DNA of 64,000 nucleotides from positions 8,122,001 through 8,186,000 of the forward strand of contig NC_043021.1 in assembly GCF_006345805.1 (NCBI RefSeq). Direction: 5' to 3'. The notes beneath the pieces are model-generated. The model worked only from the letters and a program-made list of their open reading frames with translations, was not told the origin of the DNA and did no database searches. The first letter of the stretch is position 1. Each line of letters opens with the position of its first letter. The stretch is from Octopus sinensis. Lineage: Eukaryota. Made by a program: the position numbers and the translations under genes. Shown one piece after another: positions 5,833 to 52,916 of this stretch.

Positions 5833-6989
5833 GCTAATTTTTTTTTATATATATTGTTATTTTATACATACATACATACATACACATATGCATACATACA
5901 TATGAATGTACATACATATATGTATTTACATATGTATGTATGTACTACATAGGTATGTATGCACGCACACATATTCATACATACATATATATCATGAACT
6001 AGCTGTTACTTTCTCAGATGCAGCACGAAGCTTTGTCAGTGAACAGGTCGCAGTCTCAAAGCGACAAAAATATTTTAGCAAATTAAATTTAAATGTTGAA
6101 GTGAATCTAATGGTTTTTGTGTGTTTCTTAAATGGCTTATGAACACCTTCCACGCTGCAATTGTTATTTTATTTATTTTTCATAAATTATCATCATCATC
6201 ATTATATTAACACCCACTTTTCCATGCTCACATGGGTTGGATGGAATTTGTTGAGATGGATTTTCTATGACCAGACACCCTTTCTATTATTGATCCTCGC
6301 CTGTTTCCAAGTAAGGTAATATGTTTCTGTGGAAGATTGGGAACAAAGGACATCACCTGCAGAATCTTGGTAAAACTCACAAAGACAACATCATGTGATG
6401 GCAAGGTAAAGAGATAGTAACACATGCCCATACACACACAAATATATATATATATATATATTGGATTGTTCGGAAAGTTTGCACCAATTTATAGTAGCTT
6501 ACCTTTCAACTTATTTTAGAACATGGTTGAGTCCATAAAATAGGATTTTACTAAATCTCCATTTAGAGCACAGGTTAAGCTATCTTTTCATGGAAGAAGG
6601 TTGATGTTCCTATAACCTGTGTTAATTCTGTAACCCTTTAAAATGGAAGATAAGAAAGTTCATTTTCGGCACTTGATGCTTTGGGAACCAGACAAAAATT
6701 GCTGCAGCTCAGCTGGGATGTGTTACCCCACCCTCCATATTAAACAGATATTGCTCCTTCAGAATGAAACAAATAGCAGATAAAGCATTGCGGGTTTATA
6801 CACTTGACTAAAACTCTCAAGCCCAGTGCCCCAGCATGGCCACAGTCCAATAAATGAAGTCATAAAAGAATAGAAAAATGTCTAAGTTAACCCTTCATCT
6901 CTTCGGAACTAATACAGTAAATACCAGTTGTACTCAACTATATCCTTTCCCTTCACATTCTTTATTGTTATTGTTATTATTATCATTAG

Positions 6990-7070
6990 ATATGAGCAAG
7001 TTCATGTGCTGCTTCTTGATCCGAGTGCTGAATGTTTAAGGAACATCGTCCCCGAAGAAAATATATCAAG
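6990..7070 (+). CDS. ELP5: ELP5 exon 3 (YEQVHVLLLDPSAECLRNIVPEENISR)
   Basis: cattAG acceptor, AG|GTACGT donor, phase 2->2; EQVH motif. Confidence 0.92.
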
Positions 7071-7904
7071 GTACGTGTGTTACTTTACATTTGTCAAAAG
7101 TGATTTACTGCAAATCATCAAGTCGGTAGCCAGTCAAATTATTACAGTTAATGAAATGGGTTTTCTCCCTTGTCCTTACCGTATTTCCATCGAAATACTC
7201 TGCCTTAAGTCAAGGCGGAGGTATTGTTTCGACTTTGCCTTTCATCCTTTCGGGGTCGATAAATTAAGTACCAGTTACGCACTGGGGTCGATGTAATCGA
7301 CTTAATACCTATGTCTGTCCTTGTTTGTCCCCTCTGTGTTTAGCCCCTTGTGGGTAATAAAGAAATAGGTATTGTTTGCAGTCTTGTTTGTTTGTCTGTA
7401 GACAAGATATCTCAAGAACTGCTGGATGGATCCGAATGAAACTTTCAGAGATGTTTGGCCTTCTGACTGGCAGGAACTAATTAGATTTTGGGATCGATCC
7501 TGTACCGGACACGGATTCTGGATCATTTGTTATATTTACTTTACTTTGCATGAAGTATTACAATCTTACGTTCTTTAAAGTCTTTTTCTGATTATCTCTT
7601 TTACAAATCATCTCCAGCTAATTGTTGAGAGGATGCTGGTGTTGCTTTAGCGGAGGTTTGTGTTCCTTGAGTGCTCTTGTTTCAATTAATTTTGAAATAT
7701 ATGGTAGCAGGCTGACAGAATCGTTAGCACACCAGGTAAAATGCATAGGGGCACTCTCTCTGTTTTTACATTTTGAGTTCAAATTCTGCCAAGGTCAGCT
7801 TTGCCTCTTGTTCTTTCAGGGTCGATAAAATAAGTACCAGTTTCAGGATTGATTTAATTGATTTAGCCCCTTCTCTGAAATTGTTGGACATATGCCAAAA
7901 TTTG

Positions 7905-8250
7905 AAAGAAATGAAGAATTTAGTATAATTCCAATTGAAGTCGGATGTAGAGGGTTTGTTGGACACAGTGTGAGACGACTGTTGTTATCGTTAGGCCTAA
8001 CTCATTGTAAAGTCAATACCAGCATGACCGATATCCAAACTACAGTGGAGAAGGCTTACCACTGGATTTGGTTAAAAAGAGATGATGAGCAATGGATAGA
8101 GAAATAGTGAGCTTTATTTTATAACCAGTTGATCTAGCAAGCGGGGTCTCATATTAGTGAGGGGGGCCGGTGTGCATTGATGCCGTCAAGAGGTAGGCTC
8201 CGAAACAGTGCGCATTCTCTCCTGATGACCCCATACACTTGCTGGCTTCC
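7905..8250 (+). mobile_element. 3' end of an RLE-type non-LTR retrotransposon (HERO-like)
   Basis: IPIEVGCRGFVG...EKAYHWIWLKR matches the C-terminus of HERO-clade ORFs as recalled; followed by a 3'UTR. Confidence 0.75.
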
Positions 8251-8454
8251 GGTAACCCAGCTGAAACCGGCTCTGGCTCTGAGTACAAATGTCTTGTTTT
8301 CATAAGTTTTGAATTAAAATCTTCCACCAAACCTTAGTCACAATTTATGTTCCTAACACTAGCTTAATGATACACTAAGTTATTTTACTAAATTCTTCAT
8401 TATATTTAAAGTAATTGAAAGAAACACAGAGCATCTCAAAATAAATACAGTAAT

Positions 8455-8733
8455 AATAATAATAATAATAATAAACATTGTGTACAGTGCTCAGGTGCAC
8501 TACAACTCATCGAAAGTGTATATATAATCAGGTGTAGTTTCGGCGGATTTCGGAAACCATGAGGGCCTTAAAGGATGCAGTGTCATGGCAGTCAACAACT
8601 GACGCAGGCAGTTTGTTCCATGCTTCAGCAACTCTGGGCGTGAAAAAATGTTTCCGAAAGTCATGGGAGCTGTGTTGTTTTCTGACTTTGTAGGCATGTC
8701 CACGTGTGTTGGACACATGGAGATCAAAAAGGT
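8455..8733 (-). mobile_element. 5'-truncated CR1-type LINE 3' end with (ATT)n tail, TSD GTAAT
   Basis: TRGH...RKHFFTPRVAEAWNKLP motif; the empty site is present in the adjacent duplicate at ~8990. Confidence 0.88.
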
Positions 8734-9083
8734 GTAATGAAAGGGTTAAAACGATGAGGAGGATGTTATGACCCCATACACTTGCTGGCTTCCGGTAACC
8801 CAGCTGAAACCGGCTCTGGCTCTGAGTACAAATGTTTTGTTTTCAAAAGTTCTGAATTAAAATCTTCCACCAAACCTTAGTCACAATTTATGTTCCTAAC
8901 ACTAGCTTAATGATAACTAAGTTATTTTACTAAATTCTTCATTATATTTAAAGTAATTGAAAGAAACACAGAGCATCTCAAAATAAATACAGTAATGAAA
9001 GGGTTAAAACAATGAGGAGGATGTTTTTTTTTCTTGAACTTTCTCAAAAGAAGTCAATAATTTGTCATTTTCCATTGTTCCAG

Positions 9084-13997: not shown

Positions 13998-14039
<42 letters not shown>

Positions 14040-30355: not shown

Positions 30356-30395
<40 letters not shown>

Positions 30396-31497: not shown

Positions 31498-31535
<38 letters not shown>

Positions 31536-33490: not shown

Positions 33491-33543
<53 letters not shown>

Positions 33544-34379: not shown

Positions 34380-34710
34380 GTGCTAAATGCAGAGGACATG
34401 CAAACACTAGAGAGGAATGGGGCTAGAATGCTCTGCTGGATGTGCAGTGTCAGTGTAAATGTGTGACAAAGAGTGTTTGTTTGAGAGAAAAGTTAGGCAT
34501 AAGTAGAATTAGATGCAAAAGAGGAGACTGTACTGGTTTGGTCATGTGATGTGGATGGATAAGTACAGTTGCATAAAAGGTGCTGGTCACGGAAAGTGGA
34601 TGGAACTTGTGGGAGAGGGAGACCCAGGAAGACATAGGACAAAGTATTAAAGACTGATCTCAAGACACTGAGCCTTAGAAAGGAGCTGACAAAAGACTGA
34701 GATATCTGGC
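34380..34710 (+). mobile_element. Decayed RTE-type LINE C-terminal fragment
   Basis: RMLCWMC...LREKLG...RLYWFGHV in broken frames. Confidence 0.7.
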
Positions 34711-36665
34711 ACCCACCACAGCCGAACTGATATCCTCAATCCACCTTGTTAAAGCTTGTTCAATGAGGGGCTCTGCCCCATCCCTGCCCAAGCTGTTCCA
34801 TTATCCTTCTCCCCACATACAACACATTTCATCCCCTAACACCCATCACTTCTCTATCCCTTGAGAGCAGAAAAGGCACATACTACATCCCCCAGTTTTC
34901 TCAGTTACTTCTCTTCCCCACTCCAAACCACTTCCGTTTCCCATTTTCTTCCCCTACCTACTATCACCACCTATCACCCCCCCCCTCTTTGCCCCTTCTC
35001 CCTCTTATGCTGTTCTCCATCATCAACACTTCGCTTATCTGCTATTACCCACAATGCCCTCACATATCTACGGCAACCTCCATCCCCGAGCCTCCCCTAG
35101 GTTTCTTTTCATCATTTTCTACAGTCACCTCTATCCTTCCCACTCACCCCGTCCCAAACTCTGTATCAACTTACCTATTCTCATCACCCCCCCCAGAGCC
35201 CCTCAAGAGCATATCCTGATTCATCTTTGCCATCATCTCACACACTATTGTTCTACTTATCTTACTCTCTAACCCATTCTCCTTTCTTTTCCAACTGGGG
35301 TATCCATGTATCTACAGCAAGATACCCATCTCTGTCCCTCTATAACTTCACTCTCCCAAATGGCACAAAGCTATCATCCCCTTAATAATACTTCCTACTC
35401 CCAGTTGAGGGGTGTTGCTTTTTTGTCTCCCTTTTTCGTCTTGCAAGTTACTTGGTGACCCTGTCGGTGATGGCTCTGCATAAGAAGTACCCAATACACT
35501 CTGTAAGAGGCACAATGGCCCAGTGGTTAGGACAGCGGACTTGCAGTTGGAGGATCGCAGTTTCGATTCCCAGACCGGGCGTTGTGTGTGCTTATTGAAC
35601 GAAAACACCTAAAGTTCCATGAAGCTCCAGCAGGGGGTGGCGGCGACCCCTGTTGTACTCTTTTGCCCCAACTTTCTCTCACTCTTTCTTCCTGTTTCAT
35701 GAGTAACGCTGCGATGGACTGGCATCCCGTCCAGCTGGGGGGAACACATACGCCATAGAAACCAGGAAACCGGGCCCATGAGCCTGGCTAGGCTTGAAAA
35801 TGGCGCATAAATAAAAAACACTCTGTAAAGTGGTTGGTGTTAGGAAGGGCATTCATCAGTAGAAGCCATGCCAAAACAGCTTCTGCTAAGCCATCCAACC
35901 ATGCCAGCATGCAAAAATGGATGTTAAATAACGATGATGATTGTATTTCAAATTATGATGCCTGGAGGTGTGAAGGAACAAGAATAATTTTATTTTATCT
36001 CATTGCATATGTTGCATATATTGTATATATATATATATATACTCTATATTGAGTGAGAAAACGGTATGGACGGATTTTTGGAGTCCAATATTACCCTGTA
36101 CGCCTATTTGATTATGAAGATTTACAAACATACTTTCCCAGTGATACTCAGTTTACCTACCATTATAAATAATACCAAATGTTCTTTCTCAGACCTTTCA
36201 AAATGTGTACCGCGACATCCTTTGTGTCCTGTTTTTCATTTTATTTCATTTGTTACATATATATATATATATATATATAAGGCGCGGGCATGGCTGTGTG
36301 GTTAGGGAGCTTGTTTCTTAGCTACATGGTTTCGGGTTCAGTCCCACTGCGTGGCACTTTGGGTAGGTGTCTTCCACTATAGCCCCGAGCCGACCAAAGC
36401 TTTGTGATTGAATTCGGCAGGCGGAAGTTACTGCCGTGTGTGTATATGTGCATGTAGGTGCTTGTGCCTCTCCGAAAGAGAGAGAGGGTATGCAATAATA
36501 AATGTTCGTTTACTGAAATGATCGTATCTTTGATTTGAATTTCTCTTTTCCTCATTTGAATTATTTACTCTTAATGTAAAGAAACATAACTAAATATTAT
36601 GAAACATTTTACCAATACTAAAGAAAATGCAAAAAAAACAAAAGGCATATTTATATGGGACTGAC

Positions 36666-36808
36666 CTGAAAATTTCCCACAAGGCTCATTCCTAGTGCTG
36701 CTATTATACCAAGACCAAAAGAAACTTTATTGACAACGTGTATCCGTGAATTGTCAACATTGACCAAACTTTGTATCAACTTAAAGCGAATGTACAACGT
36801 AAATAAAG
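36666..36808 (-). CDS. DRAM2: DRAM-like coding exon 3 (ALFTLYIRFK...GMSLVGNFQ)
   Basis: ttgcAG acceptor, CAG|GTCAGT donor; YIRF and GxSxVGNFQ motifs. Confidence 0.96.
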
Positions 36809-37471
36809 CTGCAAAAGAGATAAAAATGAACAGGTTTTCAATAACAATCTTTAGAGTTTAAAACAAAACATTCAACTTCATATTTAGTGACAGACATATA
36901 TTAAAACGAAACGAGACGAATATATAAAATGAATATAGGGTGCAGGAGTGGCTGTGTGGTAAGTAGCTTGTTTACCAACCACGTGGTTCCGGGTTCAGTC
37001 CCACTGCGTGGCACCTTGGGCCAAGTGTCTTCTACAATAGCCTCGGGCCGTCCAAAGCCTTGTGAGTGGATCTGGTAGACGGAAACTGAAAGAAGCCCGT
37101 TGTATATATGTATATATATATGTGTGTGCGTGCATGTTTGTGTGTCTGTGTTTGTCCCCCTAGCATTGCTTGACAACTGATGCTGGTGTGTTTACGTCCC
37201 CGTCACTTAGCAGTTCGGCAAAAGAGGCCGATAGAATAAGTACTGGGCTTGCAAAGAATAAGTCCCGGGGTCGAGTTGCTCGACTAAAAAGGCGGTGCTC
37301 CGGCATGGCCGCAGTCAAATGACTGAAACAAGTAAAAGAGAGTAAAAGAGTAAGTGAGACAATTGGGCATGGCAATTTGGATGCTGGCAATTTGGCACAG
37401 CTGCTTGGATGCCGAACCTTCTTTTGGGACAATATATTTTGGCACTGGAGCAAACAAACATGCAACAAATT

Positions 37472-37533
<62 letters not shown>

Positions 37534-38483
37534 TGTGAGAATATTACAATTTATTAATTGAAAACAATTGAAAACTAAAGGATTTTTTCCAATAATCCCA
37601 GAGTACAAATGCAAAATGTTTTGTGTTGAGAACATCAGTAGTTAAGGCTGCACTACTTAGAAAATAATGGCAGTTTCAGTATTTAATACAAGCTAGAAAG
37701 AATAGCTAAAGATTAGTAAAGACAAGTAAACAGTGCAAAACAAAATTATATCATATTATATCATATAATCCTAAATAGGGTGCAACACCAAATTTCTGAC
37801 AGGAATGGTTCCAGTACCTTACTGAATGAACTGCTTTCCTGCACAAGAAGTGGTCAATCCATATGCCTGTGGCACCTTGGGCAAGTGTCTTCTACTATAG
37901 CCTCAGGTTGACCAAAGCCTTGTGAGTGCATTTGGTAGCCGAAAAAAAAAAATATATATATATAGTTAAAGTGCATGGCTCAGTGGTTAGAATGTCGAGC
38001 TTACGATCGTGAGGTTGTAAGCTTGAATGCCGGACCAGGCTGCGTGTTGTGTTCTTGAGCAAGACACTTTATTTCACATTGCTCCCGTTCACTCAGCTGT
38101 AGAAATGAGTTGTGACATCACAGGTGCCAAGCTGTATCGGCCTTTGTCTTTCCCTTGGATAACACTGGTGGCGTGGAGAGGGGAGGCTGGTATGCATGGG
38201 CAACTGCTGGTCTTCCATAAACAACCTTGCCCAGACTTGTGCTTGGGAGGGTAACTTTCTAGGTGCAATCCCATGGTTTGTGTTGTGACTGAAGAGGGTC
38301 TCAGATATATATATATATATATAGAGAGAGAGGGAGTTTACGAAAAAAAAAAACAAAAGACGAAGACAGGTGGTGTACAAAACAAACAGATGTATTAGTA
38401 TAATGCTCAGGAATAGAAAAAGTCTTTTACGTTTCGAGCCTATGCTCTTCTACAGAAAGGGACACAGAAAAAACAAGGAAGAA

Positions 38484-38534
<51 letters not shown>

Positions 38535-38707
38535 GAAAGAAGAGGTGTATTCCTACTCCCACGCAGGAATAAATATAGTATTAGTTTTGGGAGTTTGAAA
38601 ATGCACCTGAATTTGAAAAACATGTAGCTGTTTTTATATAGATTTAGTCATATACATATCCAACTAGTTTCAGCAATTTTTTGTTTATCAATGGTACAAC
38701 TGTATAT

Positions 38708-41058
38708 TGTTGTGAAAGGATTCCAAACACACCCAAGTGACAAAAGGTAGTCTGACTCATTGTTATAAAACAAAGAACTGTCAAGGATTGGCAGTTTGTG
38801 TTGATAGCAGTTCACTGTGAACTTTCATAGAGAGTATTAAGTCTCATATAATAGTAAAAGTAGTGCATAATGTATATACTTTCTTTCCCACTGCTTTGTT
38901 ATATCATCTATCCAATACGAGGATACAAAAATGGCAATGTGTTGTTTGAAACTTGCATTGGATGTTTGAAATTTATATTGGTACAAAACCAAAAGAAAAA
39001 TTCATTTAACATGGAGAGCTTATTGGCCTCCATGGTACAGTTGCAACAACAACTATAGCAGCAGCAGCTACAACAGCAACAACAACAGAATCAACAGTTG
39101 CTGGAATTAATATTGAAGAAGTTTGAAAATACTTCGGGTTCATACTCGCCAGACAGTGTAGCAAACTCAATTGAAGAATTCAGCTATACTCCAAATGAAA
39201 GGATTACTTCTTCATCATATTTTTGTAGATACAAAGAAATCTTCAAAGAAGTGTGTAAAAGTTGGTCTGATGAGAAACAAGTATGACTACTTTTAAGAAA
39301 GTTATCCCCTGCCAAACACAAAAAATATAGAAGCCAGGTGAGATTTGTTTCAATGTAACAATATTTTATCGAAAATTTTCAGTGAAAGAAGTTCCCTGTT
39401 CCATATACAATAATGTTTAAATTTGGTAAAAAAAGATGAAGATTTTGTCACCTATACCAGAGTGGTTAACAGAGAGTGTGAGAAATTAAAACAGAATAAG
39501 CTGATCTTGGACATGTTCAAGTCTTTAATTTTTGTTCAAGGGCTTACTGTAAGTAAAGATGCTGATAAACGTTCCTGGATATTAACAAAATTAGAAGAGG
39601 ACCAAAATTTAACTCTGCAGGCAGTAGCAGAAAAATATCAGAGGATTATTAATCGATGACATAAGGCAAATAGAATTGAGGAAAAAGATTGCTCTCAGAT
39701 TCAGGCATGTTGACCGGTAATGAATAAGAAACAAGAGAAAAAAATGTCAAGACTGAACCTATGTTATGTCGGTTTAAAAAATAAAATGTCACAAGTATGG
39801 TAAAACAAGCCATAAAAAGTTGCAATGTAGGACAGAAGCTAGAAAACAGTTCAACAGAAAAAAATCATGTAAACAGATTGCTGGGGACATAAAATATGAA
39901 TAAGCCTCGAAGTAAATTTGTGTATGTAAAAATTAATAACACAAAAATAAAGTTACAATTGGATACAGGCAGCAGCATCTCAATAATTAATAAAGATACA
40001 TGGAAAAAGATCGGGAGACCTAAATGAAATGAAACCTCGAAAATTTCCCATGGTGTTTCAGGAAAAAAATTATATTTTAAGGACCAATTGATAAGTAACT
40101 TTACATTTCATAAAAAACCCTTAAAAGCTAAAGTTTTTGTTAAATAATACAACAAACTTGTTCAGATGAACAACAAACTTAACTGGATGAAATTGCTTAA
40201 CTTATGGGACCTCCCCGCAAATCTTTTCTGTAAAAAAGTAAAAGATTTTTTCTCCAGTACAAATAAATCATCAGATGAACTGAAAAAAAATTTTTAATAT
40301 GTTTCCTGAAGTTCTGTCCAATAATGCAGGTGGCACGTAAAAAGCACCCACTACACTCACGGAGTGGTTGGCGTTAGGAAGGGCATCCAGCCGTAGAAAC
40401 ACTGCCAATTCTGACTGGGCCTGATGAAGCCTTCTGGCATCACAGACCCCAGTTAAACCGTCCAACCCATGCTAGCATGGAAAACGGACGCTAAATGATG
40501 ATGATGATGATGATGAATGTAGGTCTGTGTATGAAAATGAAAGTGCAGTTTCAAATACAAGAAAATACCATACCGACATTTAAAGAAAAGAACAAACTGT
40601 ACCATTCGTAGCATTAGAACAGATAAACCTAGAGAGGCTAGAAAAAGTGGGAGTTATCCAAAAAGTGGAATATTCTAAATGGGTAGCACCAGCTGTATTT
40701 GTTAAGAAAAAGAATAATAAAATCAGAGAGTGTGCTGATATTTTTTCCACTGGAATGGAACCCTAGGCGTAAGGGATATTAAAACTCAGCACAGAGTTCA
40801 ATTCTCAAAAGAAGAGAAGATAGGGGAGACTGATTCTAAAAAATGGAAGGATTCCAACCACCCCCCAAGTGACTAAAGGTGGACTGACTTATTGTTATAA
40901 AACAAAGAACTGTGAATAATTGGCAGTTCATGCTGGTAGCAGTCTACTGTGAGCCTTTCATATAGAGAGTTGAGTCTGTGTAATAGTAATAGTAGTGTGT
41001 AATGTATATACTTTCTTCCCCCCTTGCTTTGTTATATATCCAATACAAAGATATAAAA
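38708..41058 (+). mobile_element. Internally deleted Gypsy LTR retrotransposon (two diverged LTRs, gag, protease, start of RT)
   Basis: LTR-like direct repeats ~38708-38928 and ~40845-41058; purine tract ~40807-40830; protease KLQLDTGS at ~39950; RT start WVAPAVFVKKKNNKIRECAD; family-C element inserted at 40327-40517. Confidence 0.85.
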
Positions 41059-42925
41059 TATATAAAACAAAGGGATATTAACAGAGTTTAAAATTACAAA
41101 ACAGAAATTGAACAAACATGTTTAAACAATCAAATGTTCGCATAAAATTCAATGAGTTTCACAGGGAGAGATAATATCAAAGAAAATGTCTGGTGAAGAA
41201 TGTAACAAATGCACATTACTAAAAGTATTGAGTTTTTATAGAATGTATTCTTTTATTCTTTTACTTGTTTCAGTCATGTGACTGTGGCCATGCTGGAGCA
41301 CCACCTTTTAGTCGAGCAAGTCGACCCCAGGACTTATTCTTTGTAAGCCTAGTACTTATTCTATCGGTCTCTTTTGCTGAACCGCTAAGTTAGGGAGATG
41401 TAAACACAGCAGCATCGGTTGTCAAGTGATGTTGGAGGGACAAACACAGACACACAAACATATACATACACACACACACACACACACATATATATATGGT
41501 GTTTCAGGAGGTGTATGGTGTTTTTGTATAGTGATTTGGAGTTGGGGTTTTGAAACCCAGGGGGAACCTATTATTAAAGCTTTCAAATTATGTCTGTCGT
41601 ATGCGGTTATTTTTTTGTGGAAAAATTGAGTTTTTTCTCTTTCTAGTGAATTATTAAAATATATTTAGTTGTGGTTTATATTTTTTTATGAGCATGCTTT
41701 CCTTATTCAGTCGGAATTGGGATGAAGTGTTTCTGGTGCATTGATCTAGGTGTTTGCTTATGAAAATTTTCCTGGTTGTGGGGTTCCAGATTTGTTGTCT
41801 GTGTACTGTCAGTGCTCCTCAAGGTCAAACCAGCCAACTAGGTCAAATTATGTCAAACTAGGTCAAACTATGTAGTCTCCATCACACCCACATTTGAGAA
41901 CATAGATTAAGTTCTTCGATGCACAGGTGAAGTGATTTTTATGGTGAAAGTTGATATACATACATATATACACATACATATATATATCATCATCATCATC
42001 ATCGTTTAATGTCCGCTTTCCATGCTAGCATGGCTTGGACCATTTGACTGAGGACTGGCGAACCAGATAGCTGCACTAGGCTCCAATCTTGATCTGGCAG
42101 AGTTTCTACAGCTGGATGACCTTCCCAACGCCAACCACTCCGAGAGTGTAGTGGGTGCTTTTACGTGCCACTCTGTCAGTACTGGCAACAGCCACGCTCA
42201 AATGGTGTTTTTTAGGTGTCACCTGCACGTTCGAATGGTGCTTTTTATGTGCCACTGGCACGGAAACCAGTTATCTGCTCTGGCAACAATCACACTCGGA
42301 TGGTACTCTTAGCGCTCCACTAGCACGGATGCCAGTCATTGAATTTGATTTCGATTTTGATATATATATACACATACACGCACACACATATATATTAATA
42401 GTAATAGTATGACAACAAAAGAATGAAAGTTACCTCAATATTATGTAAATAGAGGAATTTATCTGTAATATAATATGTGACAATTATTCGGTTACCATAA
42501 TATAAACTCCACATTTCAGATGTTGGGCAGAAATCTGCTCCGGCATCTCGTCAGTTATTAAGACAAATGAAAATGCAACCGAATAATTGTCACATTTTAT
42601 ATAACAGATATATATATATATATCACGTGATCACGTGACCGACCAGACCATCAAATGTTACACATCGCTGGTCACAATGCGTCCGCATTGTTTTAGCCTT
42701 CGAATGACGCCACCCTGGTGGCTAAGCGAGCAGGCCAACAGAATAAAGAGTGGGAGAAAGTGTGGTGAAAGAGTACAGCAGGGATCACCCCCCCCCTGCC
42801 GGAGCCTCGTGGAGCTTTTTAGGTGTTTTCACTCAATAAACACTCACAACGCTCGGTCTGGGAATCGAAACCGCGATCCTACGAGCGCGAAACCGCTGCC
42901 CTAACCACTAGGCCATTGCGCCTCC

Positions 42926-42956
<31 letters not shown>

Positions 42957-44183
42957 CCTAAAAGCTCCACGAGGCTTCGGAAGCGGGTGGTGATCCCTGC
43001 TGTATTCTTTCACCACTCTTTCTTCTGTTGGCCTGCTCGCTTAGCCAGTGGGGTGGTGTCATTCGAAGGCTAAAACAATGCGAACGCATTGTGACCAGCG
43101 ATTTGTAACAACATCTGATGGTCTGGTCAGTCACGTGATCACGTGATATATACATACACACACACACACACGGTGGCACGTAAAAGCACCATCTGTTCGT
43201 GTCCGTTGCCAGCATCGCCTGGCCCCGAGCCGGTGACACGTAAAAGCACCATCCGTTCATGGCCGTTCACCAGCTCTGTCTGGCACCTGTGCAGGTGGCA
43301 CGTAAAAAACACCCACTACACTCGCGGAGTGGTTGGCGTTAGGAAGGGCATCCAGCCGTAGAAACACTGCCAGATCTGACTGGGCCTGATGAAGCCTTCC
43401 AGCTTCACAGACCCCAGTTGACCCGTCCAACCCATGCTAGCATGGAAAACGGACGCTAAACGATGATGATGATGATGATGATATATATATATATTTGTTA
43501 TATTGGGAGAGTCATTATACCAATGTAAAACATGCCCCAGTGCATGTTTTTACTATCAGTATAAAGACCATCCTGAAATACAATAAGCTTCAAGACAAGT
43601 AGATATCAAGTTCATATTTTTTCACTCATTTATTCTTATTCATTTGTTTATCTTCATTTATCTATTTAATTACATGTCTATTTGCTTATTCTATTGGTTT
43701 ATTTTGATTACTTATACATATAATTTTAATCAGTTAATAGATATAAATGAATGTCTGTCGATTGATTATCCTCTCAATTTTCTCATTTGCCTTATAAATT
43801 CTGGGTATATTTCTGTTTTACCCTCACTCATACCTAGTATTTGATTACAAGACAGATATTAGTGACACTGTTTCATATTCTATTAATTGATCCTTAACCA
43901 ACAAAACAATCTTACTAGTAAGACGTTGGTTTTATTGGCATGACACAAAACTATTAAAGCGAACATCATGGAGAGAGTACTTTTGTATTTATGTATATTT
44001 AATGATATTGATAGCGGCAGGCATGGTTGTGTGGTAAGAAGTTCGCTTTGCAACCATGTGGTCTAGGGTTCAGTCCCAGAGCATGGCACTTTGGGCAAGT
44101 GTTTTTTATTATAACCCAGGAGTAATCTCAGCCTTGTGAGTGGATCTGGTCAATGGAAACTTATCTATCTCTGTTCTCACCCT

Positions 44184-44275
<92 letters not shown>

Positions 44276-44617
44276 GGTGGCACGTACTGTGCAGGCGGCA
44301 CATAAAAAACACCATTTCGAGCGTGGCTGTTGCCAGTACCGCCTGAGTGGCACACGTAAAAGCACCCACTACACTCTCGGAGTGGTTGGCATTAGGTAGG
44401 GCATCCAGCTGTAGAAACTCTGCCAGATCAGATTGGAGCCTGGTTCGCCAGTCCTCAGTCAAATCGTCCAACCCATGGAAAGCGGATGTTAAACGACGAT
44501 GACGACGATGATGATGATGATATGCTGGACAAACCTGAGCTTTGTGAGTGGATTTGGTCAATGGAAGTTAAAAGAAGCTTATTTCGTCTAACTATCTCTG
44601 TCCCCACCTCTCTTATA

Positions 44618-45863
44618 TGGGTCATCCCATGAATAATGCATTTTTTTAAATACCTTTTTTATTTTTCAAAATTAAAATAAACAAAGTTTCTTTTTAATCT
44701 AAAATATACTCTCCTTCATTTTCTACAATGCCCTTCCATTTATCTAGTAGACTTACAAGGACCCTCTTCCAAAATTCACTTGCCCATGATGAAAAATACT
44801 CCCCCAGTACTGTTCTGACCTCATCTGCAGAATTCATATTTTTCCTATCCAAATGATAACCAGATAGGGCAATGTCCAGTGGTGGTGGGACATCGTTTCC
44901 CATTCAAACTGCTCCAGCCTTTGGAATGTCAACCTCGCTGTATGTGGCCCAGCATTATCCTGATGGAAGAACACATTTCGTCTTGAAACCAAAGATCATT
45001 TTCCTTCTAGCACTGACTGAAGCCACTCAAGCTGCTCACAATAAATCTCATTTGTTATCATTTGGTTTGGGTGTAAAAGTTCAAAGTGGACTAAACCTTT
45101 CATATCTCACCAAAAAGATAACAACACCTTACATGGGTGAAGACCTGCTTTAGCCTGGGGTGTCAGTGTTTCTCTTTTCTCAACCCACTGTCTTCAGTGT
45201 TTGACATTTTTATAGAGAACCCATCTCTCATTGCCAGTCACTATTCAGTCCAAAAAAAAAGGTTCATTTGTGAGATGTGACAGTAAAGAAGAGTATACAT
45301 TCACTCTAAGTGTGAAATTAGACTTGAAAAGTTTGTGAGGAACCCATTGACCCAATTTGCTGACTTTTCCGATTGCACGAAGGTGTCGATGAATGGTTGA
45401 ATGACCAAATCCAAGCTTTTCTGCTAGTTTCTCAACAGTCACGATGGGATTTTGTTCCACCAGGGTTTGCAGGACATCCTCGTCGAGCACTACAGATCTT
45501 CCCGGACGAGGCTCATCTTCGAGGCTGTAGTTTCCAGCTCGGAATTTCTGGAACCACTGTTGACACTGGCTTATGCCTATTGTCCAATCTCCATATACTG
45601 CATTAATATTTCTCACACTTTCTATTGTCTTGTTGCCTCTATTGAACTCAAAAAGCAAAATATGCGGAATCTGCTCCGTTGTCACTTTCATAAAATAACT
45701 ATTAAAATCGAACTGCACTCTTCAAAACTTGCACTAAGAATAAGTACAAGGTAAAATTATTACCTGCTTTTATCGCAAGTTTATGCAGGTAGTTTATCCT
45801 GTCCCTCTCCGACTTTTAGTTCATGCAACTGAAAAAAACCGCATTATTTATAGGATGACCCAA
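44618..45863 (-). mobile_element. Near-full-length (~1.25 kb) inactive mariner transposon
   Basis: TIRs TGGGTCATCCCATGAATAATGC / GCATTATTTATAGGATGACCCA with TA flanks; WVPHKL motif and degenerate YSPDLAPSDYHL (PPLDIALSGYHL); frameshifts and stops. Confidence 0.93.
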
Positions 45864-45957
45864 TATATATATATATATGTTCAAAATGTGACCTCGTATG
45901 TACCGTTGGCGATTTTTTTCCTCCATCTTCCCTTCTCTGGATCTTTCCTTTTCCTAT

Positions 45958-45992
45958 GTTTCTGACGAAGAGCTCCGCTCGAAACGTAAAAC
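45958..45992 (+). ncRNA. Minimal type-I hammerhead ribozyme motif (Penelope-type) with canonical core
   Basis: GUUU-CUGACGA-A-GAGCuccGCUC-GAAA-CG-UA-AAAC: stems I and II pair; palindromic ACGU in place of stem III. Confidence 0.72.
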
Positions 45993-46091
45993 CCTCCTTC
46001 TTCCCTTCCTTCCTGAGCGTCCAATAATACTATATTTGTTCCACGTCCTCGCGTTGTTGTGTTTTCTCTTTGTGTTTTCATGTTTGGATTA

Positions 46092-46131
<40 letters not shown>

Positions 46132-46837
46132 GTACTAGAGCAACCTGAGCCATGTGAGTGGATTTGGTCGATGGAAACTGAAAGAAGCCTATTTTATCTG
46201 TCTATCTCTGTCCCCACCTCTCTCTCACTTATATATATATATACACTGGAAGTGATCTTCATCCAAGAACAGCTGAGTCAGGCGGATCCCACTGAAGAGG
46301 CTACAGGAAAGCCAAAACTGACCAACCAGTCTGGGAATATCTCAACTGCTGCTTTTCAGGTGATTATGGACCCTGTCAGCACGCATGTATACAATTATGT
46401 GTGTTGACTGCAGCATTAGAACGTTTAGCTCTTATTTCTAGCAATGTTGGTACTCCTAACATCTTTAGTCATATTTAATGGCAGTTATAGTTTTCCTTTT
46501 TGGTACACATTGCTTTCAGCTGCCTATATTAATTATGTGTGTGTGTGTGTGTGTGTGTGCGTGTGTGTGTTACTGTTTCCTTGCCTTAACATCACATGCT
46601 ACTAGTAAATGAATGTTGCCATCCTGGAAGCGGTGTCCTTTGTTTCCAATCTTTTGAGAAAACCTGTCTGCGCATCAGGAAACTTTACCTTACTTGGAAA
46701 CAGGTGGGGGTTGACAAGACTGGAAATGTATATGGCCATAAAAAAAAATCTTCTTCAACAAATTCCATCCAATCCATGGGAACACAGAAAAGTGGATGTT
46801 GTTGTTATAATGATGATGATGATGATGATGATTGCCT

Positions 46838-47288
46838 TACTTCCCTGGGCATGGACACATTGAAACTCCGACGTCTGGCAGCTGACTTGGCAGACACCCA
46901 TAAAATTATCAACCATCTTACAAACAATAACTCTGAGCACCTTTTCAAACTCCACCCATCTAACACCCGTGGACATATTTACAAAGTCAGAAAACAGCAC
47001 AGCTCCCATGACTTCAGGAAACATTTTTTTCACGCTGAGAGTTGCTGAAGCATGGAGCAAACTGCCGGCATCAGTTGTTAGTTGCCGGAGCACTGCATCC
47101 TTCAAAACTTCCATGCTTCCTGAGATTCGCCAACACTACACCTGATTTTTCTCCCCTCCATACACACACAAGCATGTATCTGACTCATACATTGTTCGCT
47201 TTCCAGACATTTGTACATTACTGCATGTACTTTATACGCACTGTCTGACAAGTTGTGGTGCACCTGAGCACTATATACAATAATTTCA

Positions 47289-47320
<32 letters not shown>
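46838..47320 (+). mobile_element. CR1-type LINE 3' end with (ATT)n tail
   Basis: LTSLGMDTLKLRRLAADL...TRGH...RKHFF. Confidence 0.9.
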
Positions 47321-47322
<2 letters not shown>

Positions 47323-47408
47323 GTTGATGATGTTGATGATGATGATGATGAGTTTGAAATAGGGTAAAACACGTAAGTTTCAAAATGACTGTTTTGTTTT
47401 CTTCTTAC

Positions 47409-47476
47409 CTATTATTGTTGAAAAAGTTAATAATTGACCAAATATACAGCTTTCAGGACTTTTAGCACCAGTGTCA
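47409..47476 (-). CDS. DRAM2: DRAM-like coding exon 2 (SDTGAKSPESCIFGQLLTFSTII)
   Basis: 68-nt exon, tttcAG / G|GTAAGA; SDTGxxxPESCIFG motif. Confidence 0.96.
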
Positions 47477-47793
47477 CTGAAAAATATAACATTTTGAACA
47501 TTAATATTTTGTAAAAATTAGCTTTAACACAAATCAAATACATGTTTTAGTTTTAATCAGCTGAAGTATGAATGATTAAGCATTTCAATTAAACATAATC
47601 ATTAAACATGTACTTGTGCTTATCATTTAACAGGTGCAGTCATATGAAGTTAAGAAGCTTATATCACAATCAGGTACTTAGCCACAGTTCAAAACAGTGG
47701 CCCCTTTGGGGCTACTGACTCTTTCTATAGCCTTATGTTAATCAACTGCCTTGTGAATATAATTTGATAGAGAGAAACTGTATGAAAGCCTGA

Positions 47794-48270
47794 TGTGTAT
47801 TTGTGTGAGGTGTGTATAGACGTGTGCATATATATGTATATATATGAGTATGTGTGTGTGTATGTATGTGTGTGTATGTATGTCTGTGTGTGTGTATTTG
47901 TGTGAGGTGTGTATAGACATATGCATATATAAGTCATATATAAGTGTGTGTATGTGTATGTGTGTGCATGTGTGTGTGTATGTCTGTGTGTGTGTGTATT
48001 TGTGTGAGGTGTATATAGACATGTGCATATATAAGTGTGTATGTGTATGTGTGTGTATGTCTCTGTGTGTGTGTATTTGTGTGAGGTGTGTATAGACATG
48101 TGCATATATATGTATATATAAGAGTATATGTGTGTGTGTGTGTATATGTGTGTGTATGCCTGTGTGTGTATGTCTGTGTATGTATGTGTGTGTATGTGTA
48201 TGTCTGTGTGTGTGTATTTGTGTGAGGTGGGTATAGACATGTGCATATATATGTATATATAAGTGTGTGT
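47794..48270. repeat. TG-rich minisatellite, five copies of GTATTTGTGTGAGGTGTGTATAGAC with variable (TG/TA)n spacers
   Basis: Motif at ~47797, 47894, 47996, 48073, 48214. Confidence 0.9.
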
Positions 48271-49209
48271 GTTATATCATCATTTAACATTTATGTTCCA
48301 TGCTGGAATAGGTCGGATAGTTTGACAGGATCCGATGGATTCAAAGACTGCATTGTGCTTCTAAGCTTGCTTTGGCACGGTACCTAGAGCTGGATATCCT
48401 TCCTAATGCCAACCACTATGTATAACTGGGTGCATTTTCCATGCCACCAGCACTAGTGAGGTTGCTATGAAGCCTGAAAGTCTGGGATTCCTTTTTACAA
48501 AGTGGGGCTACAATAGAAAGGGAAGGAGCTTTATGCTCTAAGATGAGGGGTTAAAATGTGAGAGAAAAAGCCAGAACAGAACAGAGCTACACAGCGGTGA
48601 GCTGGCAGAATCGTTAGCACGCCGGCCGGAATGCCTAGCGGTATTTCGGCTACTGTTACGTTCCAAGTTCAAATTCTGCCGAGGTCGACTTTGCCTTTCA
48701 TCCTTTCGGGGTCGATAAATTAAGTACCAGTTACACACTGGGGTCGATATAATCGACTTAATCCGTTTGTCTGTCCTTGTTTGTCCCCTCTGTGTTTAGC
48801 CCCTTGTGGGTAGTAAAGAAACAGATATTGTAGAAGAGAGACTGGGAGTTGTTGGGAAGAGATAAAAAAATAGTGGTGATAAGATATCAAGGCTGATGCT
48901 CAAGATATGAAGTGAGAAAAAGTGAATGAGGGCACAAACCAGGGAGTGTGGATGTGTAGGGTGTACGGGGGGGGGGGTGAGAGATGGTCAGAGATAGGGA
49001 AACGGATGACAGGGTGAATATAATGAAGAAAAGTTGTTGACTGGATGATAAATAAGGAAGGAAAGATAGCGAGCAAAGGAGGTGACAACTGTAAAAGTCG
49101 GGTAGGACTGAGGGGGGTGAACGATGATACATAATTTGGTAGAGAAGAAAGAGGAAAGGAGATGAATGACAGAGCAGAAAAAAGTGGGAGTTAAGAGTAG
49201 CAGAATAGA

Positions 49210-49338
49210 AATAATAATAATAATGATAATAATAATAATAGTAATAGTAATAATAGTAATAGTAATAATAATAATAATATAATAATAATAATAATAGTAA
49301 TAATAATAGTAATAGTAATAGTAATAATAGTAATAGTA

Positions 49339-49374
<36 letters not shown>

Positions 49375-49757
49375 GTAATAATAATAGTAATAGTAATAAT
49401 AATAATAGTAATAATAATAATAATAGTAATAATAATAATAGTAATAGTAATAATAATAATAGTAATAATAATAATGATAGTAGTAATAGTAATAGTAATA
49501 ATAATAGTAATAGTAATAGTAATAATAATAATAGTAATAGTAATAATAATAATAGTAATAATAATAATAATAGTAATAATAATAATAGTAATAGTAATAA
49601 TAATAATAATAGTAATAGTAATAATAATAATAATAGTAATAGTAATAATAATAATAATAATAATAGTAATAGTAATAGTAATAATAATAATAATAATAGT
49701 AATAATAATAATAATAAAATAATAATAATAATAATAATAATAGTAATAGCAATAGTA

Positions 49758-49802
<45 letters not shown>

Positions 49803-49815
49803 TAATAATAATAAT
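49210..49815. repeat. ~600-bp compound (AAT)n/(AGT) trinucleotide microsatellite
   Basis: Directly visible. Confidence 0.98.
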
Positions 49816-50934
49816 TCTTTTGACTATAGGCACAAGGGCTGAAATTTTGGAGGAGGGGGGATTAGTTAGTTACAGTGCTCAACTGGTACTTATTTATTGG
49901 TACTGAAAGGATAAAAGGCAAAACGAACCTTGGTGGAATTTGAACTCGGAACATGAAGCTAGAAGAAATGGCGCTAAGTATTTTATCTGGCGCAGCAACA
50001 ATTCTGCTAGTTCACTGCCTTAGAATAATAATAATAATAATAATAGTGTTTTTTTTTTAATATTTTCCACCAGGGCGAAGGATGAGTGGGGACAATACAA
50101 AGACAGATTAAGGTGGTGAGCTGGCAGAATTGTTAACACGCCGGGCGAAATGCTCAGCTGTATTTCGTCTGAGTTCAAATTCCGCCGAGGTCGACTTTGC
50201 CTTTCATCCTTTCGGGGTCGATGAATTAAGTACCAGTTACGCACTGGGGTCGATAAAATCGACTTAATCCCTTTGTCTGTCATTGTTTGTCCCCTCTATG
50301 TTTAGTCCCCTGTGGGCAATAAAGAAATAAATACAAAGACAGACGTAAAGTGGAAGGGGTTGACACATGATAGAATGATTAAAAAAGAAAAAGAAAATGA
50401 AGAGTGGCGCATAGGCGCAGGAGTGGCTGTGTAGTAAGTAGCTTGCTAACCAACCACATGGTTCCGGGTTCAGTCCCACTGCGTGGCACCTTGGGCAAGT
50501 GTCTTCTACTATAGCCTCGGGCCGACCAAAGCCTTGTGAGTGGATTTGGTAGGCGGAAACTGAAAGAAGCCCATCGTATATATGTATATATATATATATG
50601 TGTGTTTGTGAGTTTGCGTGTCTGTGTTTGTCCCTCCAACATCGTTTGACAACTGATGGTGGTGTATTTACGTCCCCGTAACTTAGTGGTTCGGCAAAAG
50701 AGACCGATAGAATAAGTACTAGGCTTACAAAGAATAAGTCCTGGGGTCGATTTGCTCGACTAAAGATGGTGCTCCAGCATGGCCGCAGTCAAATGACTGA
50801 AACAAGTAAAAAAGAATAAAAAAAAAATAAGAGTATACACAGTATACATAAGAAGAAGGGAAATATGCATGATATATGGCACTAAAAGAAGAAAAGAAAG
50901 AAAAGGTGATAGTGACAGGGTCCTGATACAGAAA

Positions 50935-51410
50935 GACCTCGAGAGATACTCAAGGAACCCCACCGTCCAAGATCACCCTGAATACAAAGGATGAGTGCCC
51001 TCTCTAACTTCTTTCCTCCGACTCACATGTCTACACTGAGCAGGTGCTGCTGTGCATTGCAGCAATCCAGCCTCTGAAATTGGGTCCGAAACTGGCTGCT
51101 TTAAGGATGGCTTCCAAGTAGCAATGGTCAACTCTATCAAAAGTTTTCAACTGATCTAAATTGATCAGGGCCCCACTGAAGCCAGCTTTAGTCTCAGCCC
51201 TCTCTATGATGTATTGCATAAGGTGGAGGTTGCCGTGGATAGACCAGCTCAGGATTGCGCATGTTTGTGCCTCCCCAACCAGACTACTGATGACAAGCAC
51301 CAACCTTGGCCAAAATTTTAAACTCTGTGTCTAGCATGGTTATGGGCTGAAAATTCCCTATTCCGTCCCTATTGTTGGCATCCTTTCTCAGCAGCGTTAC
51401 CACACCCTGG
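50935..51410 (-). mobile_element. L1/Tx1-type reverse transcriptase fragment
   Basis: ALINLDQLKTFDRVDHCYL...FGPNFRGWI, matching the LDQEKAFDRVDH motif. Confidence 0.8.
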
Positions 51411-51856
51411 TTAATAGCACTAGATTTCGAGCAGGAGTAGTGGGGGAGCATCATAACCATGTGCTGAGAGGAATTCTTTGGGGTTTGAACAATTCACCTC
51501 TGGAAACATGGGTGTTTCATTCAAAGACATTTTGAGTGGGACAGGCTACTCAACTTGAAGAAAATTCTAACTGGGCCCCACTTGCAAGGTCATCCTTAAA
51601 CAACCCTTATTCAGGGACCTTTTGATCAGGATGGACTACTCAGCCTAAGAAAACTCTAACAGGGCCCACCCAACCTGCAAGGTCATGTGCTGTTTATCTT
51701 GATATGAGATCATCATGTCACGCACATATGGTTGTGATGCAATGTGCCTGGTGTACCCTTATCAGATGGGCAGTCATGATAGGTATATTGGGCTTCATAT
51801 ATTTGTACTCCAGTGTCACTTTGATGGCATGCACTGCTCCCTCTCACTCAACAATG

Positions 51857-51913
<57 letters not shown>

Positions 51914-51934
51914 GTAATAATAATAACAATTTAC

Positions 51935-52062
51935 CTGATGTATGGTAAATATGGTGTTACATGGCCATTTGAAACAGAAATTACATAGGTAGTAATAAAT
52001 GTCAGGAAGGTTACTACAACCAAAGAAATTGGTAACATTTCCAAACCTAAGAGAAAGCACAT
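51935..52062 (-). CDS. DRAM2: DRAM/DRAM2-like (Frag1/DRAM/Sfk1 family) lysosomal membrane protein, coding exon 1 (MCFLLGLEMLPISLVVVTFLTFITTYVISVSNGHVTPYLPYIS)
   Basis: ttccAG|ATG, donor AG|GTAAAT; HVxPxLPYIS motif. Six exons join in frame to 792 nt = 263 aa + stop. The symbol means DRAM2-like; orthology to DRAM1 vs DRAM2 was not tested. Confidence 0.93.
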
Positions 52063-52916
52063 CTGGAAGAATAAGAAAACAAAAAAACAGTTAAACAAAA
52101 GTTGAAATCAAATTAAAGAAAATAAATTTCAAATGCTTTTGTTCATTTCATATCTTATATATAGCTTTAGTCATAATGTGTAAAACTGACTCAAATATCA
52201 CGGAGATGTACTTGCATAGCAAGTGACCTGATCTGAGATCGTGTGCTGGAACTGGAACGGAAACAATTGCAGCGTGGAAGGTGTTTATAAGCCATTTAAG
52301 AAACACACAAAATCCGTTAGATTCACTTCAACATTTAAGTTTAATTTGTCAAAATATTTTCGTTGCTTTGAGGCTGTGACCTGTTCACCGAGGTCAACTT
52401 TGCTGTTCACTGAGATACAGCATGGAATTTTGTCAGTGAACAGGTCACGGTGTCAAGGCTACGAAGATATTTTGACAAATTAAATTTAAATGTTGAAGTG
52501 AATCTAATGGATTTTGTGTGTTTCTTAAATGGCTTATAAACACCTTCCACGCTGCACACTCAAATATATTTTTGTAATCATCATCATCATCATTGTTTAA
52601 CGTCCGCTTTCCATGCTAGCATGGGTTGGACGGTTCAACTGGGGTCTGGGAAGCTGGAAGGCTGCACCAGGCCCAGTCTGATCTGGCAGTGTTTCTACAG
52701 CTGGATGCCCTTCCTAATGCCAACCACTCCGTGAGTGTAGTGGGTGCTTTTTACATGCCACCGGCACAGGTGCCAGACTAGGCTGGCAAACGGCCACGAT
52801 CGGTTTGCTAGCCCCGTCTGGCACCTAATATTGAAATTAAACTGCTTTGCACTGAAGCTGAGGAGCACTGGTAATGGCCCAAACACTAGAGCCTAAAGCT
52901 TTAGCAAAGCTTACCT

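Follow-up and report, generated by a model that had tools for sequence, protein, structure and literature searches.

What are the short hammerhead-bearing repeats that recur in this part of the Octopus sinensis genome, and do their unusual catalytic cores belong to whole families or only to single degraded copies? In the window, by which we mean the entire 64-kb stretch analysed (NC_043021.1, positions 8,122,001 to 8,186,000), we counted 12 hammerhead-motif arms at eight sites, belonging to six repeat families, here called A, B, C, D, E and G (Table 1), where a first-pass annotation made from the sequence had recognised about five. All five core types that it named are present by sequence. The CUGUAGA core stands, with 38424 being the low end of its motif rather than the core itself, while the GUGANCA core occurs in five copies and not in four, and the family E arm at 30303- is an addition. 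Inverted duplications, also noticed in the first pass, take the form of inverted arms at five sites.

Table 1. Hammerhead-bearing repeats and host-gene exons, in window coordinates; each core is placed by its position 3
Feature	Coordinates	Strand	Core (position 3)	Remarks
Family G copy	5863..6165	+	GUGANCA (6039+)	3' UTR remnant with (TACA)n, then G3-C8 hammerhead, core 6039-6045; G12 to A; 3' side of stem I damaged
Family G head-to-head pair	25814..26052	both	GUGANCA (25872+, 25838-)	25872+: stem II damaged, optional 3' tail present; 25838-: truncated past stem II
Family E (Penelope/Poseidon 3' end) head-to-head pair	30209..30661	both	CUGAUGA (30540+); second arm 30303-	108 bp arms, 91% identity; 30540+: canonical core, G12 to A; 30303-: G5 to A
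tRNA-like segment within family E element 3' UTR	30424..30491	-		Relaxed ARAGORN call, on locus L180 only
Family C (Hydra-clade-type 3' end) head-to-head pair	31527..31770	both	CCGACGA (31625+, 31598-)	U4C core; 31598-: passes descriptor; 31625+: stem II damaged
Family B solo copy	38331..38490	-	CUGUAGA (38455-)	A6U core 38455-38449; every stem intact
Family D (Hydra-clade-type 3' end)	42407..42613	-	CUGACGA (42554-)	Canonical core; stem-III palindrome broken; inverted arm of 37 bp at 42577-42613
Family A young solo copy in (TA)n	45889..46093	+	CUGACGA (45962+)	Intact canonical minimal hammerhead, core 45962-45968
Family G head-to-head pair	52202..52556	both	GUGANCA (52388-, 52436+)	52388-: 5' side of stem I missing, tail present; 52436+: A15.1 to G
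DRAM gene, exon-bearing frames	52107-51934, 47517-47383, 36857-36654, 31080-30859, 27164-26940	-		
DRAM gene, probable exon	28571-28501	-		

The match rate of a hammerhead descriptor lies above that of shuffled controls, as the first-pass reading would require. A strict type I descriptor gave two matches in the window, where 60 block-wise dinucleotide shuffles averaged 0.017. With one G-U pair allowed per stem there were three, against 0.14 in shuffles, and none of 100 shuffles gave as many. The remaining nine of the 12 arms fail through private mutations or truncation, and intact copies from all six families pass the full series of stem I, CUGANGA-type box, stem II, GAAA, NUH and stem I. An Rfam search of the window returned no hammerhead family among its 68 matches, which extended up to E=5. 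The palindromic stem-III stub noted earlier is common to all six families (ACGU in A, B and E; ACUC-N-GAGU in C and D; AAUAUU in G). The extra purine after A9, also noted, is present in families A, B, E and G but missing from C, and family D has an extra base before G12. An extra nucleotide after A9, a palindromic stem-III stub and the occurrence of solo and inverted copies are the signature published for minimal hammerheads of Penelope-like elements (PLEs) (PMC4209133).

The variant cores belong to families as a whole and not to single copies. Families A (U4 in 49 of 65 copies), D and E have the canonical CUGANGA core, and the other three depart from it consistently, with U6 in family B (A6U; 67 of 69 copies), C4 in family C (U4C; 54 of 63) and a G3-C8 pair in family G (G3 in 73 and C8 in 74 of 75), all in copy sets that come from similarity searches and are hence biased toward the query. 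Across the genome there are 15,699 exact copies of the A6U motif against 189 with A6, at least 6,968 with G3-C8 against 278 with C3-G8, the latter in a distant sister family, and 1,387 exact copies of the U4C motif. The abundance proposed in the first pass is supported. In 400 kb sampled elsewhere in the genome, seven of nine credible intact motifs were non-canonical, the two canonical ones standing among 29 family segments; these nine remained from 14 descriptor matches after five in a single AT-rich 186-bp tandem array (locus L229) were discarded as probable chance hits. Family G also includes genomic copies in which positions 3 and 8 are unpaired (239 G3.G8 and 44 C3.C8). The excess of G3.G8 had suggested an intermediate subfamily, which we rejected when 24 copies examined proved to span all subfamilies. 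Since the unpaired states are scattered across the G subfamilies and often unlike between the two arms of one insertion, we take them to be private mutations.

A Penelope origin, already suggested in the first pass, is supported upstream of the motifs, where families C, D, E and G reach PLE ORFs and family B has an ORF-bearing sister. At the family E locus L180, RT, thumb and CCHH GIY-YIG lie upstream of the motif, and the alignment is unbroken from RT to hammerhead in seven of 29 other RT-selected loci. The family G master has a 511-codon frame encoding RT and GIY-YIG (Pfam GIY-YIG, E=1.4e-4), and a 1.1-kb UTR separates this frame from the G3-C8 motif downstream; a same-strand ORF end stands at five of 30 pattern-picked places. 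Family D and its relative D2 lie downstream of ORFs with a CxCX5C-type linker at four places, and family C does so at two. The sister of family B, about 80% identical, lies at the 3' end of a Neptune-type ORF; a B-like segment stands behind such an ORF at 27 of 30 loci, 23 of them with a descriptor pass and CUGUUGA (two locus pairs overlap). Read by eye, translations of the C and D masters (L330:4321-5799 and L337) have a C-terminal EN without CCHH, a CxCX5C linker, and CxxC and CxH near the end, which would assign them to the Hydra clade of PMC8557442, a clade name that is motif-based. The B-sister (L392/L411) and G (L329) masters have a CX2-5CxxC linker ahead of a CCHH GIY-YIG and, judged by motifs in the same source, are probably of Neptune/Nematis type.

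No ORF-bearing master for family A or for the exact B subfamily was found among their longest copies (25 of A, 19 of B). We considered as A/B master an active Neptune family with 781-codon frames and 19,100 first-look candidates, but rejected it since it ends in its own U3-A8 motif. The long frames in L098, L104 and L044, which adjoin D and G copies, were likewise set aside as LINE-type RT pieces, and L053 was set aside because it resembles a host exon. Metagenome contigs yielded no relative of the G master, and a protein search gave 129 relatives, all without DNA context.

Because PLE ORFs stand upstream of most families, most short copies are 5'-truncated 3' ends, and the earlier description of the repeats as non-autonomous appears mostly wrong, given the ORFs upstream of C, D, E and G and behind the B sister. 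Similarly, the absence of an ORF holds for the window copies, save the last ~10 ORF codons at ~30500-30532 just before the family E tRNA-like segment, but not for the families as a whole. The (TACA)n run at ~5863-5990 is part of the element's own 3' UTR, in which ~300 bp are 80-83% identical to copies that carry ORFs. The repeats are thus very probably the hammerhead-bearing 3' ends of several PLE families, likely pasted into AT-rich or (TA)n DNA by the elements' own RT and endonuclease and likely decaying neutrally. Signatures of PLE insertion are present, namely inverted 5'-truncated copies, two alternative 3' ends (an optional tail) and microsatellite targets. For the decay of genomic copies at non-CpG sites we obtained values of 0.96-0.99 in the core against 0.93-0.98 in the flank, with CpG sites lower everywhere; by this sequence comparison, individual copies likely decay neutrally after insertion.

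Some of the short copies could instead be independent non-autonomous elements, SINE-like or retrozyme-like, that have their own promoters and are copied in trans by PLE proteins, a reading which we consider possible but doubtful. Families A and B are its most plausible cases, being the only ones whose short copies have fixed 5' ends, with upstream extension in none of the 25 longest A copies and in none of the 19 longest B copies; families C, D, G and E instead show graded 5' truncation into ORF-bearing elements. Family A is also young (97-99% identity among the 40 best matches), and three contigs, from runs only guessed to be RNA, weakly connect its 3' part to its 5' side. Contigs from four such runs cover family A but, as they show neither ends nor strand, speak neither for nor against its transcription. 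It occurs eight times in 30 loci of the active Neptune, which has a different hammerhead, against three segments in the 400 kb sampled, but the (TA)n targeting common to family A and Neptune could by itself cluster them. Family E possibly fits through its tRNA-like head: most of the 12 copies without an intact ORF-side flank start at or within ~10 nt of it. In 21 of 33 copies, however, this head lies within an E element that carries the ORF, and it begins at a short palindrome, which could favour fold-back. The head-to-tail tandem arrays typical of retrozymes are absent for these families, with none of hammerhead units in the window and only solo or head-to-head copies in the fetched loci. Alongside the origin from truncated PLEs that we favour, families A and B may have a second route of multiplication, as short non-autonomous forms.

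Seven of the arms read in the sense of a host gene, a member of the DRAM/Frag1 family modelled from sequence and Pfam at 26940..52107 on the minus strand, and five are antisense. Five of its six pieces match PF10277 in order, each with E<=7e-4, and a single piece alone reaches the whole-protein cut-off. There is also a plus-strand gene at ~7-15 kb of the window. The first-pass statement that no copy in host sense has an intact motif is true of canonical cores but carries no statistical weight (0/7 sense against 1/5 antisense, Fisher p=0.42), and two sense copies (38455-, 31598-) are intact with respect to their own family's variant core. That the copies are host-selected regulatory RNAs, either attenuated intronic ribozymes or dsRNA editing substrates, with intact sense ribozymes purged, is highly improbable. 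The lack of canonical intact motifs among sense copies would agree with it, as would the long duplexes predicted for the inverted pairs in DRAM introns (-133 to -211 kcal/mol); in line with the dsRNA hairpins proposed earlier, cores in three modelled inverted pairs are predicted to be paired (mean probability unpaired 0.00, 0.00 and 0.16). However, canonical intact motifs are rare in any case, as the 400-kb sample illustrates, the copies decay at the same pace as their flanks, genome-wide strand counts are even (though not gene-relative), and inversions are a normal product of PLE insertion (PMC8557442).

If the repeats are PLE 3' ends, a PLE protein would nick the DNA and prime RT inside the element RNA, ~100-170 nt downstream of the hammerhead, and two RT start sites, suggested by PMC11167929 and by the two 3' ends seen here, would account for the optional tail. 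RT would then mostly halt soon past the hammerhead, giving the 150-450 bp and often head-to-head copies that we observe. Since the cleavage site lies within these copies, they were templated by uncut RNA. By analogy with published elements (PMC4209133, PMC11167929), the master motif would be a type I minimal hammerhead that would be able to cut only together with a second copy and probably with the PLE protein. Folded as monomers, the motifs score weakly (z +0.2 to -2.3), and when two copies were cofolded freely no double-hammerhead arrangement arose. In a covariation test of the A/B lineages (66% mean column identity), limited to nine related sequences with the structure drawn from those same sequences, 96.9% of cells are paired against 28-42% in slid controls, with compensatory change within stem I. 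The core variants would belong to the master lineages, G3-C8 as a compensatory swap with partial activity predicted, and U4C and A6U with slowed cleavage predicted; selection on the masters seems to preserve the fold and to permit a slow core.

Taken one step further, and with considerable doubt, we raise the possibility that most intact PLE hammerheads here are non-canonical, that the variants were fixed independently in three clades (A6U in Neptune-type, G3-C8 in Neptune/Nematis-type and U4C in Hydra-type lineages), that selection on PLEs favours a slow, protein-gated ribozyme because the RNA must remain uncut until used as template, and that A6U is active. Conversely, A6U, U4C and perhaps G3-C8 could be catalytically dead, with stems kept for protein binding or RT start, or with masters that are simply recent. 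This we judge unlikely, even though in vitro insertion was unaffected by hammerhead mutants (PMC11167929), Naiads spread without canonical hammerheads (PMC8557442), A6C and U4C cause strong loss of activity (PMC3088659) and the form with the highest count here is A6U. Against it, paired G3-C8 is retained in all G subfamilies, the unpaired states being private, and in the B lineages all four bases occur at N7, with the other core positions and GAAA fixed, the pattern expected for a constrained catalytic core.

Many of these features have precedents. The PLE hammerheads of PMC4209133 share the type I topology, a nucleotide between 9 and 10.1 (as in our families A, B, E and G), the palindromic 15.2-16.2 stub, many families per genome, made up chiefly of single copies with kinship to truncated PLEs, pairs on opposite strands at a distance of 100-700 bp and a U3-A8 variant. 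The 56 examples in Fig. S3 of that work, in its machine-read text, have only CUGANGA or UUGAN(A/G)A, with no G3-C8, U4C or A6U and no cephalopod, whereas in octopus the variants characterise whole families and, among intact motifs, seem to be commoner than canonical cores. The Anolis Poseidon element PAc (PMC11167929) resembles our families in its internal RT start downstream of the hammerhead, two start sites giving a tail, AT-rich targets and uncut RNA template; C3G/G8C is there an engineered double mutant with partial rescue but here the natural state of a family. The Penelope/Poseidon, Neptune, Nematis and Hydra clades of PMC8557442 have the same C-terminal GIY-YIG, clade-typical linkers, (TA)n targeting, inverted 5'-truncated copies, tails and hammerheads near the 3' end, but the hammerheads reported for them are canonical; two Octopus rows in its supplement are Naiad families. 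Natural U3-A8 covariation, low-activity A6C and a viroid U4C are described in PMC3088659 as rare single examples, and neither A6U nor G3-C8 was seen among its named variants. Non-LTR retrozymes (PMC7229834; bioRxiv 10.64898/2026.07.22.740005) are also short non-coding repeats with type I hammerheads and PLE pLTR kinship, yet their units, which bear canonical hammerheads, repeat head to tail in tandem and have circular RNAs. The octopus copies instead stand alone or in head-to-head pairs, are minimal, and can for the most part be traced to elements with ORFs. Lunse, Weinberg and Breaker in 2017 are reported to have described many small variants associated with PLEs and cleaving in dimeric form (via the review PMC6765202), and these may already include some of the core variants found here; that variant list aside, we found no report of natural G3-C8 or A6U hammerheads in the literature searched. 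In O. vulgaris, 190 Penelope-like families make up 6.83% of the genome (PMC13282606), with no mention of hammerheads in the supplement.

That an animal genome can hold many hammerhead-bearing PLE remnants has been known since 2014, and what stands out here is that core variants are family-wide. The role of the hammerhead in PLEs is an open question (PMC8557442, PMC11167929). The octopus genome contains sister lineages that differ at single core positions (A6/U6, U4/C4, C3-G8/G3-C8) in otherwise similar motifs, several with ORF-bearing masters, and these therefore provide ready-made natural pairs with which to test whether cleavage rate matters. Searches for canonical cores would miss most intact motifs in this genome, judging by the 400-kb sample. 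If the suggestion of a slow, protein-gated ribozyme is true, A6U, kept while position 7 varies over four bases, would be an active natural core missed by descriptors and Rfam, and tens of thousands of ribozymes per genome would be hidden.

All the cores listed in the first-pass annotation (CUGACGA, CUGAUGA, CUGUAGA, CCGACGA and GUGANCA) were found in the window, at 8 sites carrying 12 motif-bearing arms when both arms of inverted copies are counted. Its hammerhead families are likewise present, but number six (A, B, C, D, E and G) rather than about five, and the GUGANCA core of family G occupies five arms instead of four copies. With a type I hammerhead descriptor that tolerates one core deviation, the strict form found 2 motifs compared to a shuffle mean of 0.017 (60 shuffles), and permitting one G-U per stem (the relaxed form) gave 3 compared to a mean of 0.14, a count attained by none of 100 shuffles. 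The remaining nine arms are each damaged in their own way, and CpG sites (for example C11.1-G12) are often affected. An Rfam search of the window returned no hammerhead, and about 60% of the window matches repeats present in other loci fetched from the assembly.

Hammerhead arms and other features of the window
Feature	Position	Strand	Core or description
Family A	45962	+	CUGACGA
Family B	38455	-	CUGUAGA
Family C (pair)	31625 and 31598	+/-	CCGACGA
Family D	42554	-	CUGACGA
Family E (pair)	30540 and 30303	+/-	
Family G	6039, 25838, 25872, 52388, 52436	+, -, +, -, +	GUGANCA
tRNA-like segment	30424-30491	-	A- and B-box-like motifs, family E 3' UTR
Decayed PLE coding fragment	41663-41952	-	Neptune-type GIY-YIG piece
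Decayed PLE coding fragment	60888-62100	+	Hydra-type RT/EN piece
DRAM/Frag1-family host gene	26940-52107	-	six predicted coding exons
Second gene, candidate exons	~6990-14894	+	acidic tail at 14763-14894
Tandem repeat	18937-20434	-	nine copies of 166-bp unit, 96% identity
Open frame adjoining 166-bp repeat	20340-20813	-	157 codons, Ser/Pro/Thr-rich; no Pfam match
DDE/mariner transposase and LINE reverse transcriptase remnants	4234-4785, 45248-45721, 22302-22706, 51034-51330	-, -, +, -	

As had been proposed, the elements are abundant: all six families are high-copy repeats in the 2.72-Gb assembly. Exact pattern counts, each with a reversed control of 0, gave 15,699 copies of the A6U context (189 with A6), 6,968 of G3-C8, 1,387 of family C with U4C and 1,010 of canonical intact family A. 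Because pattern length and degeneracy vary, the figures serve as minimum values and cannot be compared strictly. In a 400-kb sample (40 stretches of 10 kb at hand-picked round coordinates on large contigs), the descriptor found 14 matches compared to 0.27 in 15 shuffles. Five were dropped, all from one AT-rich tandem array, leaving 2 canonical (CUGANGA), 2 A6U, 2 U4C, 2 U3-A8 and 1 G3-C8. Scaled to the whole genome this is about 60,000 intact motifs, with wide error. Eight family queries matched 29 segments of the same 400 kb, making the window richer than average (12 arms versus about 4 expected), but its arms are paired and the queries were built around its own families. The dropped array (L229:5343-6090) has 186-bp units satisfying the relaxed descriptor with CUGUAGA, probably by chance, possibly as a retrozyme-like array. 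A further family with a U3-A8 core lies in inverted arrangement at L249:1988-2680.

The unusual cores are real lineage states. U6 is present in 67 of 69 family B copies and C4 in 54 of 63 family C copies, the other nine having T, the CpG decay product; among 75 family G copies, 73 have G3 and 74 have C8. U4C further marks D2, a relative of family D, and 16 of 65 family A copies. Genome-wide, the family G context occurs as G3-C8 (6,968), C3-G8 (278), G3.G8 (239) and C3.C8 (44). The C3-G8 set is a distant sister family, as judged from five loci, one with an ORF 30-45% identical to that of the G master (the ORF-bearing element behind the short copies). Copies with the mismatched states G3.G8 and C3.C8 (24 and 4, compared with 35 others) do not cluster but fall in various subfamilies. 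C8 to G (239 copies), spread over all subfamilies of G, is about five times more common than G3 to C (44), an excess that may reflect a hot spot of mutation or of reverse transcription.

The suggested Penelope origin is borne out, with families C, D, E, G and a sister of B tracing to Penelope-like element (PLE) ORFs upstream. Family E forms the 3' end of an element of Penelope/Poseidon type: in locus L180, RT, thumb and a CCHH GIY-YIG are followed by a tRNA-like segment, then (AAC)n and finally the hammerhead. Of 29 further loci selected by RT, 7 give one alignment spanning RT to motif. Upstream of family G lie about 1.1 kb of UTR rich in (TACA)n and, beyond it, a 511-codon RT and GIY-YIG frame (L329); a same-strand ORF end was present at 5 of 30 pattern-picked places, and the copy at 6039 retains about 300 bp of the master's UTR. 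Motifs of D/D2 (four places) and C (two places) stand 0.2-1.9 kb downstream of ORFs with Hydra-clade features as listed in section 11 of PMC8557442. The sister of B (about 80% identical, core CUGUUGA) ends a Neptune-type element in 27 of 30 loci. Families C, D, E and G show head-to-head pairs and, through the optional PLE tail, two alternative 3' ends; these agree with the structures in PMC8557442 and with the pair of internal RT start sites in PMC11167929. The term 'non-autonomous' is not supported for C, D, E and G, which have ORFs upstream, and may apply to A and B. None of the longest copies of A (0 of 25) or of B proper (0 of 19) runs past a fixed 5' end, so these two families may be non-autonomous, or else solo pLTRs (PLE terminal repeats) defined by their start site.

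The tRNA-like segment, also seen at L180 and L182-L210, sits some 150 nt 5' of the hammerhead in the autonomous family E element, and could be the Pol III promoter of a SINE-like sub-element, since many short E copies begin there. A young Neptune-type family (L290:2532-4874 and L259-L297), probably recently active, carries numerous intact frames of 781 codons, with one of 479 codons upstream; its 3' UTR has CCAAT/CRE-like repeats, and its hammerhead, read by eye, is U3-A8. For one PLE protein of this genome, the closest named relative is labelled Octopus vulgaris (50% identity).

Five minus-strand exon frames of the host gene match Pfam Frag1/DRAM in order from 52107 to 26940. Counting this gene with its immediate flanks, and placing 6039 in an unconfirmed plus-strand gene, the arms divide into seven sense and five antisense. 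The claim that no sense copy is fully intact holds for the canonical form (0/7 versus 1/5 antisense, p=0.42) but not for each family's own form (2/7 versus 1/5, p=1.0); neither comparison gives statistical support for an orientation bias. One piece of the candidate second gene on the plus strand has a weak Elongator Iki1 match (E=0.0011). When three inverted pairs were folded, the sense core of each was sequestered by pairing with its own complement over a long duplex. Such copies are therefore expected to be dsRNA, not ribozymes, in agreement with the proposed supply of hairpins.

Across nine A/B-lineage copies, stems are paired in 96.9% of cells versus 28-42% in slid controls, and stem I has one compensatory pair (66% mean column identity among few, related sequences). 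Copies decay neutrally: within a family, core and 3' flank show similar conservation and both lose CpGs, which argues that selection acts on masters, not dispersed copies. The copies include the cleavage site, uncut. According to the literature, PLE hammerheads are dimer-dependent with low activity (PMC4209133), cleavage is protein-assisted, the hammerhead is dispensable for insertion in vitro and C3G/G8C gives partial rescue (PMC11167929), and A6C and U4C lower activity (PMC3088659). Master elements would then retain a foldable yet slow ribozyme. In our judgement, G3-C8 is likely to cut at some rate, U4C somewhat less surely so, and for A6U we would predict cutting with even chances.

Elements of this kind are known, and nearly every feature in the first-pass annotation appears in Cervera and de la Pena 2014 (PMC4209133), whose Fig. 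S3 text lists no cephalopod and none of the cores G3-C8, U4C and A6U. A keyword search, with subscription papers largely outside its reach, returned no natural G3-C8 or A6U hammerhead, and searching with the sequences of families B and C gave no match. In a repeat annotation of octopus, 190 families are classed as Penelope-like (PMC13282606), and its supplement does not mention ribozymes. The original observation is confirmed and its interpretation partly supported, and natural high-copy core variants tied to identifiable masters make the function of PLE hammerheads testable.
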